Positions 1-48,849 of a stretch of DNA of 64,000 bases are shown one piece after another. Source of the DNA: Eledone cirrhosa. Its lineage: Eukaryota. Position 1 is the first letter of the stretch. Each line of letters starts with the position of its first letter. The stretch is from positions 33,232,001-33,296,000 of the forward strand of contig OZ024746.1 of the NCBI GenBank assembly GCA_964016885.1, in the 5' to 3' direction. Below the pieces are notes generated by a model. The model was given only the letters and a program-made list of their open reading frames with translations, was not told the origin of the DNA and searched no databases. Made by a program: the position numbers and the translations under genes.

Positions 1-248
1 TCATAAATAGAGAGAGAGAGAAAGATAGAGAGAAAGGGATAATGGATGTGAGAGAGTAGATTGAAAGAGAGACATAGAGAGATAATATGTATATATATAC
101 ACACACACATATATATGGGCCTTCCAATTTCATTTTACAGTATATACATGTCTCTGTATATTTTAATTATTTAAAATTATTTTTAAGTGCACGTGAGCCA
201 ACCAAAGTTAACCTTGGCGGGATTTGATTGCAGACCGTAATGGGCCGC

Positions 249-249
<1 letters not shown>

Positions 250-332
<83 letters not shown>
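250..332. repeat. (CA)n microsatellite; representative of dozens of (TA)n/(CA)n/(GA)n tracts in the window
   Basis: Pure dinucleotide run; accounts for the poly-HT/poly-VC ORFs in the track. Confidence 0.98.
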
Positions 333-2990: not shown

Positions 2991-3978
2991 GCACGCGCGC
3001 GCCTCATACGTAGTCGCTCATGTACATATATAGAAAGTATACACACATTAAGGCGTTCAGCCATATTGATACAGGGTATAAAAAACTTGTCGATAAGTAA
3101 GTACAAATATAAAATTGTAAGATTGGCTGCGTAAAAATAAAAAAATAAAAATAAAAATGAAAAATATATCTGGATTGGAAAACACAAAAGTAGTGTTTCC
3201 TAGCATGCAAGATGACATTCTCTTCAATATCGGAGATATTAGTAAACCCGCTAGCGAAATTTAAAGCTTTCGCTAAAAGGGTCTGAGTGATAGATGGGTA
3301 GAAATCTACAATGACAAATTGGGTGAATCTAGAACTATTTTTGTTTTTAATATTATTAAACCAATGTACTACGGAAGAGCTATTTATCCATTGGAGTAAT
3401 TTAGACTTACTTCTAATGTGTGTATTTAATTTATTTAAAATTTTTTTGCTGGCAAGACCAATATCAGTCTTAGCAGGGTTGATTAATCTACAATTAGGAC
3501 GATTAATAAAGTCGGGTTTATGATCTTTAAGGGTGATATACGCAGAACGTTTAGCAAGTTTTTCTGTCCTATTATCTATTTTTAAAGAAACAGCTAATTC
3601 TTTAGCTTCCTTATTTATATTATGGTACGTATTTATATTAGCTATTTGGTATTTAGAGGTGATATTATCTATTAATAGTTGGGCGTGTAAATTATTATTA
3701 ACTTCATATAGGTTTTTAGTTTTATCGGAGAAGATGAACTTATTATTAGAAGATTTGAAAGTTGAAATATCATTAGATAATTGAGATTGAAAAGGGTTAG
3801 AGTACTTACGAAAATTGATATTGTTGATTAGGTTAACTAGGTCTAATTCAAAGGCGGTCATATCTTTTACTCTTTGCGGGTATTTATGAGTTTTGATGTC
3901 AAAATATTCCGTAGAATCCGTGTTAAATTGTCCATCGAGAATCAAAGCTTTCCATCTCATTCTTTTAACAACCTTCTT
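1930..3978 (-). mobile_element. Penelope-like element (Naiad-like), internally deleted: N-terminal RT region plus 3' UTR with HHR
   Basis: ORF 3004-3960 has MRWKA, FELDL, SDKTKNLY, TLKDHKPDF, CRLINPAK, QFVIVDFYPSI. Homology stops near 3190 and is followed by an AT-rich 3' region with an HHR, then (TA)n. Confidence 0.85.
2032..2108 (-). ncRNA. Type I hammerhead ribozyme
   Basis: Minus strand: UUGCCUCGU-CUGACGA-aCGAAUGA...UCAUUCGg-GAAA-CC ucu GG-UA/AUAAGGUAA; predicted cleavage after GUA, between 2042 and 2041. Confidence 0.75.
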
Positions 3979-4683: not shown

Positions 4684-5495
4684 AAATGATGAATAAATAA
4701 TAATAAATAAGTTATAATGAAGATGATAAAAAGTAACTAAAATGTTTTTGTATGTATGCGAAGAAAAGTGAACATAATATGATTGATGAAAATAGTTGTG
4801 GTGTTGGTGGTTAAAATATAAAGATGTGATGGTATAAACATGAAAATACTAAATATATACATATATGTATTGGTTAAATTAATAAATTAATAAATTGGAA
4901 GTTATGTTAGAAGTGAAGAGAATACGATAGGATATAATGTAAGAGGTGAAATAGATTTAGGGAAAGAGAGTGACAGAGAGAAAAGTTAGGAGGTTATGAT
5001 GTTGATTCATTGATTAGTTGATTTATTGACAGTTAATAATAACAATAATGGGTTATTATAATAGACTCAGGTTGGATCGAATCAAGTTGGTTTGAAATTA
5101 GCGAATTTAGTAGCAGCTTTATGCCTACAGAAAATTGACCGCTCAATTTTGCTGTTAAGCAGCATTTTGTCATATTTTAAAATATGGAGCAACTCCATAT
5201 TGCAAATTACGCTGTAGGCTTTTGTCCCTGACAATTTCGACTAGCTAATCCAGTATTCTTGGTTTGTATCTTTAAGCTACAAGTTAATAATGAAAATTAA
5301 TAATTATAAACCTACTTTCAAAATCAAGGTGGTGTCGTTCATGGCTTTCCTAGAGCTATTAGTCATATTTAGGGTCAACTTGTCAATCTGCTGGCTTCTT
5401 TGGTAACAAACTTATTATTTCTATGCGTGATTAACAGTTGAATTAATTTAATTTTATTATTTTACCTGACAAATAATATATATATATATATTTAC

Positions 5496-10082
<4,587 letters not shown>

Positions 10083-24184: not shown

Positions 24185-27100
24185 TTGCGAGGTTTTTGAA
24201 ATGAAATCGTGTGTCGAAACACATAATGTTATACTAGGGGAGGGTCATATTTGTGTAATAATATTGCCAGAATTAATAATAGAACACACTCACTTTTTCG
24301 TTGGTTTTCGCTTCTGTGTCTTTTATATCGTTGCATGTGTCTTTCCATTTCTGTTGGGTCGCACATGCGGGACACGCTCTTCATCACTCGTACCAAGTCT
24401 GCGGTCAGAATATTAAACTTAGCACTACTGAACATTGCTGAGTTTTTGAGTATCAGGTATTTGGAGGCCATGAGTTTAGCATAGTGTGAATGGAGAATGT
24501 TGGCTCTCTCGTCTATAGTGTAATCCAGAGTTCCGTGTCTAATACAGGTAGTCTATTGTTAGGGTGTTTGGATGGGAAGTCGATAGTTACAGTTATACTC
24601 TGGTGTATGAAATTAGCTATCTGCTGGATGCTTTCCATTGTACTATGTTCTAAATCAAACTTGTTAGTTCTCTCTTGTGGGGATGTCCTTATTACTATAT
24701 TGATGTCGTCTGCGTAACGAGAGTACATGATGAGGTCTATGGAGCTCTCATCAAGGAGATCTTTGAGTCTCCTTTCCCACCATACCATAAAAAGGTTGGC
24801 AACGTCACCAGCTCTGCTGACGCCAATGGCTGCTCCGTCATTTTGGGTGTAGCTCTTCTCGTTGACTTTGAATATGTGGCCCTTTAAGGTAGTTTTGATA
24901 CAAGCCCCTATTGCATGTGCGACCATTTTTCTTACCTGATCATTGTTTTGGGGGGTCCGTATAGCTTTGGTCCACCCAATGCACCTTCCCATGGGAGTCT
25001 TTTTTGCCATTGAGGTTATGGTGGGGGTCTACCTCCATGGGTCTACTGGGGCAGAAATGTCTAAGGTCATGGCTGTCTAGGTAGTCAGTATCATAGTTAA
25101 GTCTAAGTATTCTAAGTAGGAGGTCCAGTTCGTCTGTGTCGACGTCGCAGAACTCCACCTCACTCTCAATGATCATCTCCACACATTTTTCCACAGCAAA
25201 ATCAATGTTAATGGATGGGTACAGTGATACCACATCCATACTGCCTATTATGCAGTTGGATAGGTTTTTGTTTTTGTTGCACTCACTGACTCTGCTGAGG
25301 AGGTCCTCTGTACTGTCACATACATCTTGGGACATCTTGATTATGCGGCGTATAACCATTGAGAGGAGGTTGGAGATCCTGTAGTTGCTAGCTATATTTG
25401 CTCCGCATAGAGTTCTTGTTGGTGGTCCTGTTGTCGGGTTGTCGGGTCGTCGACTGTCTTGTGGTCTTTGTGGAGCCCATACAAGGGTGGTTGCCATTGT
25501 TAGACGCCTGGAAGTTGTTGGCAGTGCATCTGCTTGGCTTTAGGATGTCGGTCCACATCATCATGTGAGCGTTGAGGATTTTCTCTCTCCCATCATGTAT
25601 TTGCTGTGCAATTTCGCTCGAGTTGCTCATGTGGGGTTGCATAGCCTTGATGTACTTCGGCATGCTGTCTATTGACATCCTACCAGACTTATCCGTGGGT
25701 AGACATACTACCTCACCATCCCCTGTGCGATGCTTGAGGCTAACCAAGCCTTCTACAGGTTTCCTCCCAAGTTGTTGGACCTCAGTCTGCTCTGTCTCTT
25801 AGTATACCGGTCTACTATTTGTCTAATCTTATTTCTAGCTATGGTGAACTGTGCCTCTGTCTCGTCATCTATTTGTTGTGGTATACAAACCCTTTTATTA
25901 AAGGGTAACCTCGTAGGATAGATATTACCCATCTTATATGTTTTGTCAGCTGGATTGAAGAATAGTTTCTCTAAGGGGTTGTCATTATATCTATCGTCAT
26001 AGTTGTGTGTGTTGCTATTATTGTTATTATGGTGGTTGTTGTTGTTCGTATTATTAGCATTATTATTACTGTTATCATTGCTAGATGTATTGTTGCTGTG
26101 ATTGTTAGATGTATTGTTGTTGTTTTCTCCCCCGTTATTGTTGTTGTTACTGTTATTTCTACCATTGTGGTTGTTACTTTTATTATGTTTCTTGTTTTTG
26201 TTGTTGTGTCTATCATTAATGTTGCTATTTCTATTATTACCACTGTGGTTGTTGTTGTTGTTACTCGTATTATTTCCATTATTACCACTGTGGTCGCTGC
26301 TGTTGTGTCTGTCGTTAATGTTTCTATTATTATTATTATTGTGGTTGTTGTTTTTGTTCTGTCTATCGTTATTATTATTACCATTATTACTATTTCTCTC
26401 TCTCCTGCTATTGTTATTGTTATGACTGTTACTATTATAGCTGTTATTTCTATACTCAGAGTTATTGTTTATATTACTACTATCGTTATTATTGTTGTTG
26501 TTGTCGGTATAGTTGTTGTTGTTGTTTACTTTTGCATTCCAACGTATTTTTGTGAAACACTTTTCCAGCTCCGTTTTGCACTCGATAGGGTTAATCTTTT
26601 TGTAGATAGCAATTTTTGGTGGTAGCTGCAGAATTTGTTGCTCTTGTTCACTGATTAAAGTGTTCCCATAAATATTTACTGCGTGGTCATTGGTAAATTC
26701 TTCCGGTAGTTCTACATCAGTCATACGGATATTGTTGGGTCTTGCTGGGTATTTTTGTCAATATTCTAATTTTCTTTCTTCTACTTTTTCTTATTCATCC
26801 ATTCTAATTTCTTATTGAAATGCCTATTGCATTAGTTTCGGGCGTATTTCGTTTCACGTCGAATGACGCTCATGAGTTCATCTCTCTCGTTTGGAGTGGT
26901 GAGATTTCGAACTTACCGTTAATGCGTTTCTGTCTGTAAAGTTCGTTAACTTTTGTGTATGTTGTTCTTTTCATATTAACTGTTATTGTGTGTTTTAGTC
27001 GTTCAGCTTGTGTTTTGTTCAATAATAAATTATTTACTTGTTTTGATATGTTTGTTGTGTATACTTTGAAGGAAACACAGTGCTTTTTCTTAAAGCACTG

Positions 27101-28057: not shown

Positions 28058-28140
<83 letters not shown>

Positions 28141-28145
28141 TATAC

Positions 28146-28176
<31 letters not shown>

Positions 28177-28198
28177 TATGTGTGTATATATATATATA

Positions 28199-28368
<170 letters not shown>

Positions 28369-28380
28369 TATATATATATG

Positions 28381-28464
<84 letters not shown>

Positions 28465-28468
28465 TATG

Positions 28469-28539
<71 letters not shown>

Positions 28540-28608
28540 GTATATATATATGTATATGTATATATATATATATGTGTATATGAATATATATGTATATATA
28601 TATATGTG

Positions 28609-28709
<101 letters not shown>

Positions 28710-28787
28710 GTATGTATATATATATATTATATATATATGTATATTATATATATATATGTATGTATGTATATATTATTTATATATATG

Positions 28788-28834
<47 letters not shown>

Positions 28835-29030
28835 CAATATATTTAGAAACACACAGATACATGCGGGCACACACATATATACATGAATGCATCCGCACCC
28901 AACTGTGAGTTAAGGGTGCCAACTTCACCGATGTTGCTCAATGAATGACCGGGACAGACCAATTCAGTTGAACCAGACTGAACCAGTATCAGAGTTGTAG
29001 ACGCGTTCTTGAGACTAGTAAAATGAGGTA

Positions 29031-29120
29031 TCCTCTTGATAAGTCGGCAGACCTCGCAGGGACTCTATATCTTTATGATATATTGTTTTTGTTTATGCCA
29101 CGAAACTACGTAGTCGAGGA
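29031..29120 (+). ncRNA. Type I hammerhead ribozyme, U3-A8 core variant (copy 1)
   Basis: UCCUC-UUGAUAA-GUcGGC...GCCAC-GAAAC-UACGUA-GUC/GAGGA; predicted cleavage after 29115. Confidence 0.8.
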
Positions 29121-29625
29121 ATTTAGGAGCAGTTTAGGTATGATACATTTTATTACTAATTATATCTAAATGTTTCTTCTCTCTTCATAATGTATTTTTA
29201 ACTCTGATACTGGTTCAGTCTGGTTCAACTGAATTGGTCTGTCCCGGTCATTCATTGAGCAACATCGGTGAAGTTGGCACCCTTAACTCACAGTTGGGTG
29301 CGGATGCATTCATGTATATATGTGTGTGTCCGCATGTATCTGTGTGTTTCTAAATATATTGTTAATAACTCCCTCTGGTCGAGCAATCTTTGAAGTGTGG
29401 GAACAACTGGAAAGCTTCCATTACTCATTCTTCTAGCCTTCTTCACCACCTCTTCTGCAGCCTCGATATGAATACCCCCTCCGCCTCCGTGGTATTTTCT
29501 TCGTGGTTATAGGAGGCTTAGCTCTGTTTCTCGACCGTTATATCGCGTGACTATCTCCCCCTCCGCCTTTTGGGATTCTTTCTCACGTCGTGTAGACGCG
29601 TTCTTGAGACTAGTAAAATGAGGTA

Positions 29626-29715
29626 TCCTCTTGATAAGTCGGCAGACCTCGCAGGGACTCTATATCTTTATGATATATTGTTTTTGTTTATGCCACGAAA
29701 CTACGTAGTCGAGGA
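29626..29715 (+). ncRNA. Type I hammerhead ribozyme, U3-A8 core variant (copy 2)
   Basis: Identical to copy 1, offset +595. Confidence 0.8.
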
Positions 29716-30220
29716 ATTTAGGAGCAGTTTAGGTATGATACATTTTATTACTAATTATATCTAAATGTTTCTTCTCTCTTCATAATGTATTTTTAACTCT
29801 GATACTGGTTCAGTCTGGTTCAACTGAATTGGTCTGTCCCGGTCATTCATTGAGCAACATCGGTGAAGTTGGCACCCTTAACTCACAGTTGGGTGCGGAT
29901 GCATTCATGTATATATGTGTGTGTCCGCATGTATCTGTGTGTTACTAAATATATTGTTAATAACTCCCTCTGGTCGAGCAATCTTTGAAGTGTGGGAACA
30001 ACTGGAAAGCTTCCATTACTCATACTTCTAGTCTTCTTCACCACCTCTTTTGCGGCCTCGATATGAATACCCCCTCCGCCTCCGTGGTATTTTCTTCGTG
30101 GTTATAGGAGGCTTAGCTCTGTTTCTCGACCGTTATATCGCGTGACTATCTCCCCCTCCGCCTTTTGGGATTCTTTCTCACGTCGTGTAGACGCGTTCTT
30201 GAGACTAGTAAAATGAGGTA

Positions 30221-30310
30221 TCCTCTTGATAAGTCGGCAGACCTCGCAGGGACTCTATATCTTTATGATATATTGTTTTTGTTTATGCCACGAAACTACG
30301 TAGTCGAGGA
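30221..30310 (+). ncRNA. Type I hammerhead ribozyme, U3-A8 core variant (copy 3)
   Basis: Identical to copy 1, offset +1190. Confidence 0.8.
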
Positions 30311-30379
30311 ATTTAGGAGCAGTTTAGGTATGATACATTTTATTACTAATTATATCTAAATGTTTCTTCTCTCTTCATA

Positions 30380-30469
<90 letters not shown>

Positions 30470-30500
30470 TATATATATAATATATATATACATATATATA

Positions 30501-30603
30501 TCCCACCGAGGTTAACTTTGCCTTTGATCCTTACGGGGTCGATAAAATAAAGTACCAGTAATGCACTAGGTAATTGCTGGCCTTGTGCAAAAAAGTAGAA
30601 ACA
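30501..30603 (+). mobile_element. 5'-truncated Nin-type SINE
   Basis: CCGAGGTTAACTTTGCCTTTGATCCTTACGGGGTCGATAAAATAAAGTACCAG. Confidence 0.8.
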
Positions 30604-33127: not shown

Positions 33128-36100
33128 TACGTGACGTATTCTATTCTATAGCGATTAGGTCTTCAAAATGTTTATTATAAACATACAGAATATTTTCGAA
33201 TATTCTATGTCTATATTCACATATATATCGCTATTTCAGAGCATTTATTCCAATTTCTAATTTCTGCCGGACCGGCAACCGCTCTTTCAAACCAGTTCCT
33301 GTACACAGCTAAGTATTCTATAAGTCTCTAGCTGTGTCATTCTCGATAAAAGCACTGGATATGTAGTCCTGATGAGTTCTAACGAGAATGAAACGCGTAG
33401 ATTACTTCCCTTGCTTTTATCGAGAATCTAATTGTAATACGTGACGTATTCTATTCTATAGCGATTAGGTCTTCAAAATGTTTATTATAAACATACAGAA
33501 TATTTTCGAATATTCTATGTCTATATTCACATATATATCGCTATTTCAGAGCATTTATTCCAATTTCTAATTTCTGCCGGACCGACAACCGCTCTTTCAA
33601 ACCAGTTCCTGTACACAGCTAAGTATTCTATAAGTCTCTAGCTGTGTCATTCTCGATAAAAGCACTGGATATGTAGTCCTGATGAGTTCTAACGAGAATG
33701 AAACGCGTAGATTACTTCCCTTGCTTTTATCGAGAATCTAATTGTAATACGTGACGTATTCTATTCTATAGCGATTAGGTCTTCAAAATGTTTATTATAA
33801 ACATACAGAATATTTTCGAATATTCTATGTCTATATTCACATATATATCGCTATTTCAGAGCATTTATTCCAATTTCTAATTTCTGCCGGACCGGCAACC
33901 GCTCTTTCAAACCAGTTCCTGTACACAGCTAAGTATTCTATAAGTCTCTAGCTGTGTCATTCTCGATAAAAGCACTGGATATGTAGTCCTGATGAGTTCT
34001 AACGAGAATGAAACGCGTAGATTACTTCCCTTGCTTTTATCGAGAATCTAATTGTAATACGTGACGTATTCTATTCTATAGCGATTAGGTCTTCAAAATG
34101 TTTATTATAAACATACAGAATATTTTCGAATATTCTATGTCTATATTCACATATATATCGCTATTTCAGAGCATTTATTCCAATTTCTAATTTCTGCCGG
34201 ACCGGCAACCGCTCTTTCAAACCAGTTCCTGTACACAGCTAAGTATTCTATAAGTCTCTAGCTGTGTCATTCTCGATAAAAGCACTGGATATGTAGTCCT
34301 GATGAGTTCTAACGAGAATGAAACGCGTAGATTACTTCCCTTGCTTTTATCGAGAATCTAATTGTAATACGTGACGTATTCTATTCTATAGCGATTAGGT
34401 CTTCAAAATGTTTATTATAAACATACAGAATATTTTCGAATATTCTATGTCTATATTCACATATATATCGCTATTTCAGAGCATTTATTCCAATTTCTAA
34501 TTTCTGCCGGACCGGCAACCGCTCTTTCAAACCAGTTCCTGTACACAGCTAAGTATTCTATAAGTCTCTAGCTGTGTCATTCTCGATAAAAGCACTGGAT
34601 ATGTAGTCCTGATGAGTTCTAACGAGAATGAAACGCGTAGATTACTTCCCTTGCTTTTATCGAGAATCTAATTGTAATACGTGACGTATTCTATTCTATA
34701 GCGATTAGGTCTTCAAAATGTTTATTATAAACATACAGAATATTTTCGAATATTCTATGTCTATATTCACATATATATCGCTATTTCAGAGCATTTATTC
34801 CAATTTCTAATTTCTGCCGGACCGGCAACCGCTCTTTCAAACCAGTTCCTGTACACAGCTAAGTATTCTATAAGTCTCTAGCTGTGTCATTCTCGATAAA
34901 AGCACTGGATATGTAGTCCTGATGAGTTCTAACGAGAATGAAACGCGTAGATTACTTCCCTTGCTTTTATCGAGAATCTAATTGTAATACGTGACGTATT
35001 CTATTCTATAGCGATTAGGTCTTCAAAATGTTTATTATAAACATACAGAATATTTTCGAATATTCTATGTCTATATTCACATATATATCGCTATTTCAGA
35101 GCATTTATTCCAATTTCTAATTTCTGCCGGACCGGCAACCGCTCTTTCAAACCAGTTCCTGTACACAGCTAAGTATTCTATAAGTCTCTAGCTGTGTCAT
35201 TCTCGATAAAAGCACTGGATATGTAGTCCTGATGAGTTCTAACGAGAATGAAACGCGTAGATTACTTCCCTTGCTTTTATCGAGAATCTAATTGTAATAC
35301 GTGACGTATTCTATTCTATAGCGATTAGGTCTTCAAAATGTTTATTATAAACATACAGAATATTTTCGAATATTCTATGTCTATATTCACATATATATCG
35401 CTATTTCAGAGCATTTATTCCAATTTCTAATTTCTGCCGGACCGGCAACCGCTCTTTCAAACCAGTTCCTGTACACAGCTAAGTATTCTATAAGTCTCTA
35501 GCTGTGTCATTCTCGATAAAAGCACTGGATATGTAGTCCTGATGAGTTCTAACGAGAATGAAACGCGTAGATTACTTCCCTTGCTTTTATCGAGAATCTA
35601 ATTGTAATACGTGACGTATTCTATTCTATAGCGATTAGGTCTTCAAAATGTTTATTATAAACATACAGAATATTTTCGAATATTCTATGTCTATATTCAC
35701 ATATATATCGCTATTTCAGAGCATTTATTCCAATTTCTAATTTCTGCCGGACCGGCAACCGCTCTTTCAAACCAGTTCCTGTACACAGCTAAGTATTCTA
35801 TAAGTCTCTAGCTGTGTCATTCTCGATAAAAGCACTGGATATGTAGTCCTGATGAGTTCTAACGAGAATGAAACGCGTAGATTACTTCCCTTGCTTTTAT
35901 CGAGAATCTAATTGTAATACGTGACGTATTCTATTCTATAGCGATTAGGTCTTCAAAATGTTTATTATAAACATACAGAATATTTTCGAATATTCTATGT
36001 CTATATTCACATATATATCGCTATTTCAGAGCATTTATTCCAATTTCTAATTTCTGCCGGACCGGCAACCGCTCTTTCAAACCAGTTCCTGTACACAGCT

Positions 36101-36356
36101 AAGTATTCTATAAGTCTCTAGCTGTGTCATTCTCGATAAAAGCACTGGATATGTAGTCCTGATGAGTTCTAACGAGAATGAAACGCGTAGATTACTTCCC
36201 TTGCTTTTATCGAGAATCTAATTGTAATACGTGACGTATTCTATTCTATAGCGATTAGGTCTTCAAAATGTTTATTATAAACATACAGAATATTTTCGAA
36301 TATTCTATGTCTATATTCACATATATATCGCTATTTCAGAGCATTTATTCCAATTT
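33128..36356 (+). repeat. Tandem array of a 310-bp unit (10 full copies plus a partial), each with an HHR; non-LTR retrozyme-like
   Basis: GTGACGTATT at 33131, 33441, 33751, 34061, 34371, 34681, 34991, 35301, 35611, 35921 and 36231; only one substitution noticed (G>A at 33585). Confidence 0.98.
33339..33427 (+). ncRNA. Type I hammerhead ribozyme, first of 10 copies (repeats every 310 bp)
   Basis: GUAGUC-CUGAUGA-GUUCU aacg AGAAU-GAAAC gc GUA/GAUUAC; stem I extended by AUUCUCGAUAAAAGCA/UGCUUUUAUCGAGAAU; predicted cleavage after 33399, 33709, ... 36189. Confidence 0.92.
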
Positions 36357-36389
36357 ATAATTAATATATTTATTATAACAAATATTTTA

Positions 36390-45495: not shown

Positions 45496-45540
<45 letters not shown>

Positions 45541-45600
45541 TTTAGGACTTGTAAAAACCCACCCACCAACCCACTATTAGATGCATTTGAGCAGGACCTT

Positions 45601-47679
45601 ATGAACTTAATCCTTAAAATTAAATTCAAAGGACGCAACACCAACAGCAAATTACAGAAAGATATAAAAAAACTACTGGACGACCTTAAAAACACCAAAG
45701 GAATTGTAGTAAAAGCGGACAAAACATCAAACCTGTACACTATGGATTGCACTACATACAACAACTTCATTCGAAAAGAATTACATAAAAAATATAGAAA
45801 AACGAGTGAAGTAACCCTTAAGCACATCAATGATGAGGCATGCGAAATAGTGAAAAATCTCGGAATCGAAGATAGGACAGGACCACTCTTACCGGCGGTA
45901 CCCACCTTCAATCTTAAGGACCACAAGGTAAACTTTGATAATGACCCTAAAATTAGATTAATCTGCCCCTCTAAATCAGATATAGGTAAAATAAGCAAAT
46001 ATATCTTAGATAGAATCATCCCCCAAATTAAGGCTAAGGTTAACATTAAACTCTGGGGGAAGACCCAAGAAGCAATAAGATGGTTTAATAGCATTAGCAA
46101 TAAGAATAAATCTAAGTTTATCCAGTTTGATATCGATGAATATTACTCATCGATATCACCTGAAACTTTAAATAGAGCCATTAAGTTTGCTAAGGATAAC
46201 TCTGACCTTACAAACGATGAAATTAAGATTATATTAGAAGCTAGGAAAACTATAGTCAAATTTGAGAACAGTTATTGGGTACGTAAAGATAGACCCTCTA
46301 ACTTTGACATAACAATGGGCTCTAACGATTCAGCGGAAATAACTGATATTGTGGGGTTATTTATCGCCTTTAGACTCCAGGAAAAATTCAGCAATCTCCA
46401 CGGCGGAATATACCGCGACGATGTTCTCCTCCTAGCTAAAAACCTTAATAACCAAAAACTAGAAAAACTACGCAAAGATATAAGAAAACTACTACTCGAA
46501 ATAGGACTAACTATAACATATGAATACAACCTTAAAGTAGTTAACTTCCTGGATGTCACACTCAATTTAAACTCTGGTTTGATTAAACCGTTTCATAAAT
46601 TGAATGAAAATCTCAAATACGTAAATGTTGGGTCTAACCACCCCATCTCTATAATTAAATCTATCCCTAAAAATATTTCCCTTAGAATCTCGGGTCTATC
46701 TTCTAACATACAAGTATTTAAGGAACACGCCGAGTACTACGATAACGCCCTTAGTAAAGCAGGCTACCTCAACAAAATAGAGTACATAGATGGGAACAAT
46801 CAAAACACCCAAAATAAATCCCACATAGGTAGATATAATAACACAACACCAAACCACACTTACTACCATAGTATGCACACCAGTAAACCAACAAACAAAA
46901 CTAATAGAAAGCGATGCAAAGAGTACTTATGGTATAACCCCGAATACAATAGCTCCATTAGTACAAATTTACCAGTACTCTTCTTTAAAATAATTAAATG
47001 ACATTTTCCCACATCACACAAATACCACAAAATCCTAAACCCTACCACTATAAGACTGTCATACTCTACAGCGTTAAACCTTGAACAACACATAAAAAAG
47101 ATCAATACTAGAAGGTTAAACGAAAACACTAAGAACTTAAGTACAAAGAACACAAAAAAAACAGTAGACAATACACTACAGAACATAAATAAACCACACC
47201 TAAGTTCGTCCGCAATACTACTCCAGAGAAAACCCAACGTACACAACTGTAACTGCACCTATCCTGACAACTGCCCCCTCGGCAATAACTGCCTGGAAAA
47301 AAATATTATTTATAAGTGTACCATTAAATCCGGAGGCAACGAGTGGTATTACGTGGGATCAACGGCAACATCGTTTAAATCTCGATTGTATAGGCATTCT
47401 TACTCAATAAAACACCAGAGCCAAAGAAATGTAACAACTTTAGCAGAAAAAGCTTGGACGCTCAGGGATAGCGACCAAAAGTTTACCCTAAAATGGGAAA
47501 AATTAGCTAAAACCCAAAGCTTTTCCAGGAGCCAAAATTTCTGCAAATTGTGTAATCTTGAGATTTATTACATAATCACACACAAGAAGAAACTGCTGAA
47601 TAACAGAATTGAACGAACATTATTCTGCCGTCACAGAACTAAAACCCTTTTTTCCCACTACAAGCCGAATATTACATAA
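45601..47679 (+). pseudogene. PLE RT-GIY-YIG polyprotein with a single in-frame TGA at 46999-47001
   Basis: [88 protein letters not shown]; ORFs 45601 and 47353 are in the same frame. Confidence 0.9.
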
Positions 47680-48004
47680 AAGAGGGACATCCCCCAACTA
47701 TATAAACCTTAATCTAGTTAAAAAAATATAAAAACAATCTCTTCTCAACATATATTAATAACCTTAAATTACCATACTAATAATGAAAAGATATGCTGAT
47801 GAGAATAGGTACAAATATGCGATAATGAATGTGTCTAAAAACGTCCATAAGTATGTATATATATGTGAAAATGTATATAAATAAGTAAATATATATATAT
47901 GTTTGATGTGTATAGTTAGATGTAAGTGTATTCATGTATTAAAGTGCTTATATATATATATATATGTATATATGTGTATATGTATGTGTATGTATATATG
48001 TATG

Positions 48005-48039
<35 letters not shown>

Positions 48040-48631
48040 GTATATGTATGTGTATATATATATATATGTATGTATATATGTGTATATGGATGTGTAAGTA
48101 TGTGTATGTGTGTACACATGGACTAGAGTATGTATGTATATATGTGTGTGTCTATACGTGTGTATATAAAGATAAGTTGAGTATGAAAATGTATACACAT
48201 GAGCGCGTATGTATGTACATGAATACATGTGTGTATATATATGCGTATGCATGTGTATATATATGTAAGTATGAATATGTGAATTGTGAGTATATGTATT
48301 TTGTAGAGGTGTGCAAATATATTTGTGTGTGGATGCGTGGGTGAAAGGATACGTACACTTGAAAGAAAAATTTAAGTCTGAATGTTAATTAAGTGCAAAC
48401 ACAAAACCAACCACGCATATCTTTACTATCTCTAATCCTTCTATAGATTTAGAAAAATAACCAATAATATATTCTATAAAAAATGTCAAAACAACAGATG
48501 GGAATCTAATTACTCACTGCCACCAAGAATTCTCACTGCTATCGAAAAACCACTCCTTCAACTATTCTTCTAACAACTTCACCCCTCCCTCCTAATATTC
48601 TCTATAAAAACTAAATAGGTCCTCAGTAATA

Positions 48632-48748
48632 TTATTCTGATGAAATGACAGTAAATAATAACATTGAAATATTGAATGTCTGCATAACTAAAAGTTTGTA
48701 GATAGCTGTTTTAGGTTATGTAACTGTTATAGAAACACGTGTCAATAA
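48632..48748 (+). ncRNA. Type I hammerhead ribozyme with multibranched stem II
   Basis: UUAUU-CUGAUGA-aAUGACAGU[two hairpins]ACUGUUAUa-GAAAC-ACGU-GUC/AAUAA; predicted cleavage after 48743. Confidence 0.7.
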
Positions 48749-48782
48749 ATTCCTTTCAACTAAACTGTATCCATTCAAATCT

Positions 48783-48849
<67 letters not shown>

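Follow-up and report, generated by a model that had tools for sequence, protein, structure and literature searches.

What kind of element is a 595-nt tandem repeat in the genome of Eledone cirrhosa that carries a hammerhead ribozyme motif of unusual core in each unit, and how are its copies made? The repeat lies near the middle of a 64,000-nt stretch of contig OZ024746.1 (the window). Coordinates refer to the window, and unit positions count from window position 28996 (unit position 1).

Layout of the element and its hammerhead motif

The direct repeat spans 28996-30385 (1390 nt, 2.34 units) with a period of 595 nt. Units 1 and 2 show five mismatches over 595 sites, and the final 200 nt are identical. 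Ahead of the direct arm lies an inverted 165-nt copy of 29200-29364 (28832-28996; identity 164/165). No open reading frame (ORF) longer than 80 aa is found inside the element at the window locus, and the ORF with reverse transcriptase (RT) and GIY-YIG endonuclease that marks an autonomous Penelope-like element (PLE) is absent from it. The sequence-only reading of this locus, which had described a Penelope-type arrangement of an inverted partial copy and 2.3 direct copies in TA repeats without an ORF, is confirmed. The features of the insertion are as follows.

28060..28833, no strand: (TA)n target, left flank
28832..28996, minus strand: inverted arm, unit positions 205-369, with its 3' end at fixed site B
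28996..30385, plus strand: direct arm, 2.34 passes of the 595-nt unit, with its 3' end at fixed site A (unit position 200)
29024..29029, also +595 and +1190, plus strand: predicted pseudoknot, 5' strand UGAGGU
29031..29120, plus strand: type I hammerhead 1, predicted cut after C 29115
29031-29035 and 29116-29120, plus strand: stem I of hammerhead 1, TCCTC and GAGGA
29036-29042, plus strand: core UUGAUAA of hammerhead 1 (U3 = 29036, A8 = 29041)
29043-29049 and 29096-29101, plus strand: stem II base of hammerhead 1, 6 bp with one bulge
29051..29056, plus strand: ACCUCG of the stem II internal loop, the predicted 3' partner strand of the pseudoknot
29057..29091, plus strand: predicted hairpin prolonging stem II, with 12 of 36 columns altered between subfamilies and pairing retained
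29102-29115, plus strand: GAAA (29102-29105), palindromic stem III (29105-29114, 10 nt) and GTC ending at 29115
29116..29195, plus strand: predicted long hairpin 3' of the cut site, then fixed end A (29195, 29790, 30385)
29196..29364, plus strand: tail of about 165 nt between fixed ends A and B
29359-29364, again 29954-29959, plus strand: end B, after a predicted hairpin
29626..29715, plus strand: hammerhead 2, identical to hammerhead 1, predicted cut after 29710
30221..30310, plus strand: hammerhead 3, identical to hammerhead 1, predicted cut after 30305
30383..30501, no strand: (TA)n target, right flank

The three hammerheads read UUGAUAA with stem I TCCTC/GAGGA, as had been noticed from the sequence. 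TTGATAA starts at 29036, 29631 and 30226, and GAAACTACGTAGTC starts at 29102, 29697 and 30292. Stem II had been credited with about 45 extra nucleotides, and 46 nt separate the two strands of its base in hammerhead 1. The motif has the type I arrangement of three stems around the core with stem I open, the G10.1-C11.1 and A15.1-U16.1 pairs and an NUH cut site. It departs from the literal core C3 U G A N G8 A by U3 and A8, in the window and across the family, with the Watson-Crick 3-8 pair kept. CTGANGA is absent from both strands of the element in the window, which bears out the expectation that CUGANGA searches would miss the motif. Rfam gives no hammerhead family match at the element. It likewise overlooks the canonical C3-G8 hammerheads of a 310-bp array in the window, and the miss is therefore not specific to U3-A8. 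That array (33128-36362; 10.4 units of 310 bp at 99% identity) contains ten canonical C3-G8 type I hammerheads, the first near 33363, and is a second retrozyme family. It falls below the Rfam gathering threshold, and its ends lie outside TA repeats, with a TGGCCGG motif near both.

The free fold of 29015-29135 is no more stable than those of shuffled sequences (z = -0.01), and a fold forced into the hammerhead is 1.1 kcal/mol less favourable than the minimum. The stem III palindrome is predicted to be capable of a 10-bp dimer helix (-12.9 kcal/mol). In the circular fold prediction, the 3' strand of stem I is sequestered in the downstream hairpin. Two GAGG and two CCTC segments are found in this region (29025-29028, 29032-29035, 29052-29055 and 29116-29119). 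In the modelled pairing they could form stem I and the pseudoknot, or could pair crosswise and block the active fold, making a conformational switch possible. The U3-A8 hammerhead of the family is likely to be catalytically active.

The U3-A8 core across the genome and its conservation

The sequence-only reading had called for a genome-wide copy search. A core-plus-stem pattern in which positions 3 and 7 were left free and position 8 was a purine gave 6,418 genome matches, compared with 8 for the reversed control, and the hammerhead motif is therefore not a chance occurrence. The exact U3-A8 core with longer context gave 6,170 matches. Nine C3-A8, eight U3-G8 and no C3-G8 copies are present among the 6,418. 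Same-context patterns retrieved no C3-G8 sister in the genome; sisters with other stems would escape these patterns. The single CUGANGA match with the same stem III was set aside, since it reads as a chance inversion junction. The 3-8 swap is fixed in the 595-nt family, and the change itself is not caught happening in this genome. Of the earlier proposal that C3U and G8A form a compensatory double change in a rare natural variant, the U-A swap of the 3-8 pair stands, while the double change is deduced from the class consensus (no C3-G8 relative was found) and the variant has already been published. Natural covariation from C3-G8 to U3-A8 is on record for phage and bacterial hammerheads, and such ribozymes have already proved active in vitro (PMC3088659). 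U3-A8 also occurs in Schistosoma PLEs, with about 1,300 hits (PMC4209133). The U3-A8 core is thus a known variant and not a new one.

Copies with the two changes unlinked had been named as a possible refutation of the compensatory reading. Seventeen of the 6,418 copies carry one change only; they resemble sporadic mutations, and the test is not a fair one. C3-A8 sits in a single pass of the unit in all seven multi-hammerhead insertions that contain it. U3-G8 sits in one pass in five of six such insertions and in both passes in the sixth (L115), where a wobble template was therefore copied. The single mutants were rejected as evidence of selection, their distribution over passes being no different from that of private variants, 17% of which are template-borne (21/124). 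In sequencing run X1, the family is present at very high depth, and no variant reaches 5% at position 3 or position 8. Near-identical pieces of the family also occur at low depth in runs recorded for other organisms (mostly 2-13; ~100-800 in X4), and X22, a raw run from the same study as X4, gave 0 family reads in the ~1% of it that was read. A spread of the family to other organisms was rejected, the low-depth pieces being probable carry-over and not evidence of transfer.

Selection on the motif had been proposed from the three copies in the window. These copies are passes of one insertion and not independent evidence; they were most likely copied from one template and therefore cannot show selection. 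The comparison of subfamilies does lend the proposal support. Identity to the window unit varies among copies from 73 to 100%. The oldest subfamily, represented by the commonest letter per column in 28 insertions, differs from the window at 126 of 595 columns (~21% divergence). Only 1 of the 44 columns of the core and stems (I, II-base and III) differs, compared with 125 of 551 elsewhere (Fisher p = 4e-4). In this subfamily, all 36 copies compared have A at position 8, and 34 of them have T at position 3. Because the core and stems are conserved across subfamilies, the hammerhead motif is very probably under selection, as far as sequence comparison can tell. Among young copies, template-borne variants make up 2 of 82 distinct variants in the ribozyme and 12 of 151 elsewhere, a depletion that is not significant (p = 0.15).

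In 18 hand-picked copies, 95.7% of the cells of the proposed structure are paired, compared with 33-52% in slid controls. Covariation over the whole structure is barely above that of shuffles (13/500 for the score and 107-267/500 for the other four measures). The predicted 6-bp pseudoknot is paired in 18 of 18 aligned copies, and five of its pairs are invariant. The sixth, at the end of the helix, is U-A in old copies and U-G in young ones, and an intermediate group has C-G. C29 is found in 173 copies and is accompanied by G61 in 18 of 20 targeted copies, G61 being the majority state anyway. The change amounts to one evolutionary event, and its support for the pseudoknot is modest. Hammerheads of all three types are known to form pseudoknots that link stems I and II (PMC3088659).

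Two fixed 3' ends, one per side, and a probable single template per insertion

Mapping of 176 loci plus the window yielded 137 distinct complete insertions; by a rough estimate, the genome contains about 4,000 in all. The 3' ends of the mapped arms take one of two places, unit position 200 (site A) and unit positions 364-369 (site B), and almost always abut TA repeats, whereas the 5' ends are scattered along the unit. The set contains 77 A+B, one A+A and one B+B insertion, 49 single-armed insertions (28 A and 21 B) and nine irregular ones. Among clean head-to-head insertions, 77 of 79 pair A with B, with the ends 165 nt apart (binomial p = 1e-20). The A+B rule is valid within each ascertainment set, and the old subfamily contributes 12 A+B, no A+A and no B+B among 28 insertions. 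The inner junctions are variable, mostly with 0-7 nt of overlap. Arms longer than one unit are frequent on both sides (53 of 115 for A, 37 of 103 for B). The arrays are short and dispersed, with at most ~5 units per arm, and no coding segment lies between the arm ends in the mapped insertions of the family. The window insertion is typical, with a short B arm and a long A arm. The inverted 5'-truncated copy, the one-sided tail and the AT-rich target are those of PLE-mobilised insertions.

Several loci have structures of their own. Two near-identical insertions 2.5 kb apart share the same inner junction (L064-L069, contig C1, near 19.62 Mb) and are probably a local duplication; they count as two entries in the insertion-end count and as one in the haplotype count. 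L055, L219 and L224 are compound loci, and at L055 a young copy lies beside or inside an older-subfamily copy in the same TA run. Within the unit, 29138-29218 (unit positions 143-223) resembles an intron of GT...AG type, with a GTATGA start, a branch-like TACTAAT, a pyrimidine tract and a CAG end. The segment spans site A, which would be removed if it were spliced. Four sequencing runs, none of them recorded as RNA, contain no joint that skips it.

Haplotypes were compared across 121 young insertions. Between the two arms of an insertion, 5 of 411 common-variant sites disagree, whereas arms taken from different insertions disagree at 35.6% of such sites; between consecutive passes, 7 of 769 disagree. 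Private substitutions either are shared by all passes of their insertion (21 cases, of which 11 span both arms) or are confined to a single pass (103 cases), and none is present in some but not all passes; many insertions have only two passes, and the some-but-not-all class is tested by a few long ones (L052, L072, L096 and L166). One private substitution is present in all 8 passes of L096. The main pattern, which the sequence-only reading did not bring out, is the use of two fixed ends, one per side, together with apparently one template for both arms. The A+B rule, the 165-nt tail and the single template have no match in the literature consulted on PLEs and retrozymes. Titles and abstracts on U3-A8, on PLE twin priming and circular RNA and on retrozyme pseudoknots mention neither an A+B rule nor such a pseudoknot. 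The pattern suggests, as its simplest reading, repeated copying of one monomer, i.e. a circle, from both DNA ends. A single template of circular form is fairly probable on this evidence.

A footprint of cleavage was sought in the 5' junctions, which were counted by eye with indel rows dropped (15 in the cut-site window and 11 in the control window). At unit positions 114-129, 23 of 85 junctions among 100 of 147 matches listed start at 121-122, the predicted cut site. In the control window (247-262; 82 matches), the best adjacent pair holds 19 of 71. Both windows exceed the uniform null, and because the control window peaks as much as the cut site, the excess of 5' truncations there is not specific.

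Enzyme, template and place among known elements

The window carries several PLE fragments. At 45536-48788 (plus strand) lies a 5'-truncated copy, with one in-frame stop (46999-47001), of a very young PLE of Hydra type. The 3,599-nt unit of this family has a 785-aa open frame in many genomic copies (L207-L216), and at least 149 matches are 100% identical over a 183-aa query. The frame contains the motifs RWK, DKT and CxCx5C, which are marks of the Hydra clade, a clade that inserts in (TA)n (PMC8557442); by motif description, it matches the Hydra type. A hammerhead-like core lies upstream of two fixed ends 115 nt apart in the 3,599-nt unit. Its five complete two-armed insertions all use one of each end, in (TA)n, and it forms tandems too. 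The search for a partner covered two Hydra-like families, in a genome with about 35,000 further PLE candidates, and neither shows significant DNA similarity to the 595-nt unit; alignments of sites A and B are no better than shuffles (196/300 and 29/300). This similarity search ties neither family to the 595-nt unit as pLTR-sharing partner or as mobiliser.

Older Hydra-like fragments with a GIY-YIG match are found at 5477-7612 (plus strand) and 3004-3978 (minus strand), and relatives of the former carry a canonical C3-G8 hammerhead. A broken RT-bearing element at 24513-26757 (minus strand) has a long asparagine-rich insert that recalls the N-rich inserts of rotifer Penelope elements (PMC3846280).

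In the 595-nt element, every tandem unit is non-coding and contains a whole type I hammerhead, and the family is dispersed, recently mobile and multicopy. By these sequence characters, it belongs to the non-autonomous non-LTR retrozymes and inserts in the manner of PLE-mobilised elements; it is not an autonomous PLE. PLE-type target-primed reverse transcription (TPRT) very probably mobilises the family, to judge from its insertions. On balance, the family appears to be a young non-coding tandem retrozyme with a unit of 591-595 nt and thousands of copies, whose U3-A8 hammerhead likely yields monomers that probably become circles and would be copied by a likely Hydra-clade PLE enzyme from two fixed sites onto cut TA ends. 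The element would be transcribed, and the transcript would be cleaved after 29115, either as a monomer aided by the pseudoknot or as a dimer through the 10-nt palindrome. The cleaved monomer would be ligated to a circle. TPRT would then start at sites A and B on the two ends of a cut TA repeat, with a borrowed Penelope-like enzyme, likely of the Hydra clade, and the two cDNAs would be joined at their 5' truncation points. A more detailed model is offered tentatively. A dimeric Hydra-clade Penelope enzyme may prime one circular hammerhead-made RNA at the two fixed sites 165 nt apart, one per cut (TA)n end, with both RTs rolling round the same circle. The ribozyme would be a pseudoknot-stabilised type I form with U3-A8, and its two GAGG and two CCUC segments would perhaps swap partners as an on-off switch.

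As the main rival reading, the fixed ends and shared haplotypes could also come from a linear, uncleaved multimer of one homogeneous source array copied by the same enzyme, with the hammerhead acting elsewhere, for example in freeing transcripts from read-through RNA, and no circle being copied. Such a single source locus would likewise give arms of one haplotype, and the autonomous 3.6-kb element is tandem too. In vitro, unprocessed RNA is the main substrate of an anole PLE protein, hammerhead mutants have no effect on insertion and no RNA reads begin at the cut site (PMC11167929). A linear template is nevertheless unlikely: insertion-private variants are found in all passes of an array, as many as 8 over the two arms, with no case of some but not all, and the multimer would have to be an equally long homogeneous array, itself a product of repeated monomer reading or of gene conversion. 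The U3-A8 motif might instead be a hammerhead with weak catalysis or none, maintained as a signal in protein binding or folding that serves the PLE protein. Hammerheads of metazoan PLEs have low activity in vitro (PMC4209133), the anole ribozyme cuts only with the protein present (PMC11167929), genomic junctions at the cut site give no clear footprint over the control window, and in the predicted circular fold a downstream hairpin takes up the 3' strand of stem I. Retention of the core positions, stems I-III and the predicted tertiary contact over ~21% divergence, and the reported in vitro activity of U3-A8 ribozymes (PMC3088659), make this signal role improbable.

An origin at the DNA level, by satellite expansion, as an inverted-repeat DNA transposon or through conversion between arms, is very improbable. 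Unequal crossover has been proposed for tandem amplification of retrozymes (10.64898/2026.07.22.740005), and conversion could make arms homogeneous. Against this, the 3' ends are fixed and the 5' ends scattered, the two ends differ and are not terminal inverted repeats, the arrays are short and dispersed (about 5 units per arm or fewer), and a coding PLE leaves the same footprint. The circular, PLE-copied retrozyme remains the preferred account of the family.

The family shares several characters with metazoan non-LTR retrozymes, namely non-coding tandem units with one type I hammerhead each, GC <45% and thousands of copies (PMC7229834; 10.64898/2026.07.22.740005). A PLE origin and a circular intermediate have been proposed for those elements as well, and 595 nt is within their reported range of 51-972 bp. 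Circles have been shown in vivo for retrozymes of coral, mussel and axolotl (PMC7229834), and the PLE origin has been argued by phylogeny (10.64898/2026.07.22.740005). Unlike metazoan retrozymes as described in these sources, the 595-nt family has a U3-A8 core, a long stem II and a predicted pseudoknot, and its insertions are head-to-head and two-armed with two fixed ends. The 3-8 swap is shared with phage and bacterial hammerheads (PMC3088659) and with those of the Schistosoma mansoni Cercyon PLE, where the context of U3-A8 is also that of a PLE (PMC4209133). The Schistosoma motifs are described as minimal, heterogeneous and mostly single (PMC4209133), whereas the present family has a full three-stem motif with a 10-nt palindromic stem III, and U3-A8 is fixed in more than 6,000 near-identical copies of a tandem non-coding element.

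An inverted 5'-truncated copy with a one-sided 30-40-bp tail has long been known for endonuclease-bearing PLEs (PMC3846280, PMC8557442). Their insertions resemble those of the 595-nt family in head-to-head orientation, a tail on one arm, microhomology at the inner junction and, for the Hydra clade, TA targets (PMC3846280, PMC8557442, PMC11167929). The anole PLE protein nicks and extends both DNA strands in vitro. It begins copying at two internal sites of its RNA, which delimit the tail, but, in contrast to sites A and B of the 595-nt family, these start sites do not differ between the strands (PMC11167929). The first start site of the 595-nt family lies ~80 nt 3' of the hammerhead cut, compared with 85-92 nt in the anole element (PMC11167929). 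Unlike these PLEs as described, the family has no ORF, its tail measures 165 nt, and each of its two arms may be longer than one unit. It is also set apart from the PLE insertions in the published accounts consulted by its near-strict pairing of A with B, counted on 79 insertions, and by a template common to both arms, counted on 49.

Descriptors based on CUGANGA undercount retrozymes, with more than 6,000 copies overlooked in one genome; a 2026 retrozyme pipeline uses canonical and minimal descriptors (10.64898/2026.07.22.740005). The value of the family lies in its insertion footprint and not in the core swap. Mobilisation of retrozymes by PLEs has so far been argued from co-occurrence and phylogeny (10.64898/2026.07.22.740005), and the origin of the tandem and inverted structures of PLEs is a named open question (PMC8557442). 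The two-ended single-template model can be tested directly in vitro, since the template is 0.6 kb long, its two start sites are mapped, natural variants serve as barcodes and the genome also encodes a Hydra-type enzyme that appears intact. If that model is true, two-ended rolling-circle TPRT would generate three structures of Penelope elements, namely their inverted repeat, their one-sided tail and their tandem pLTRs.
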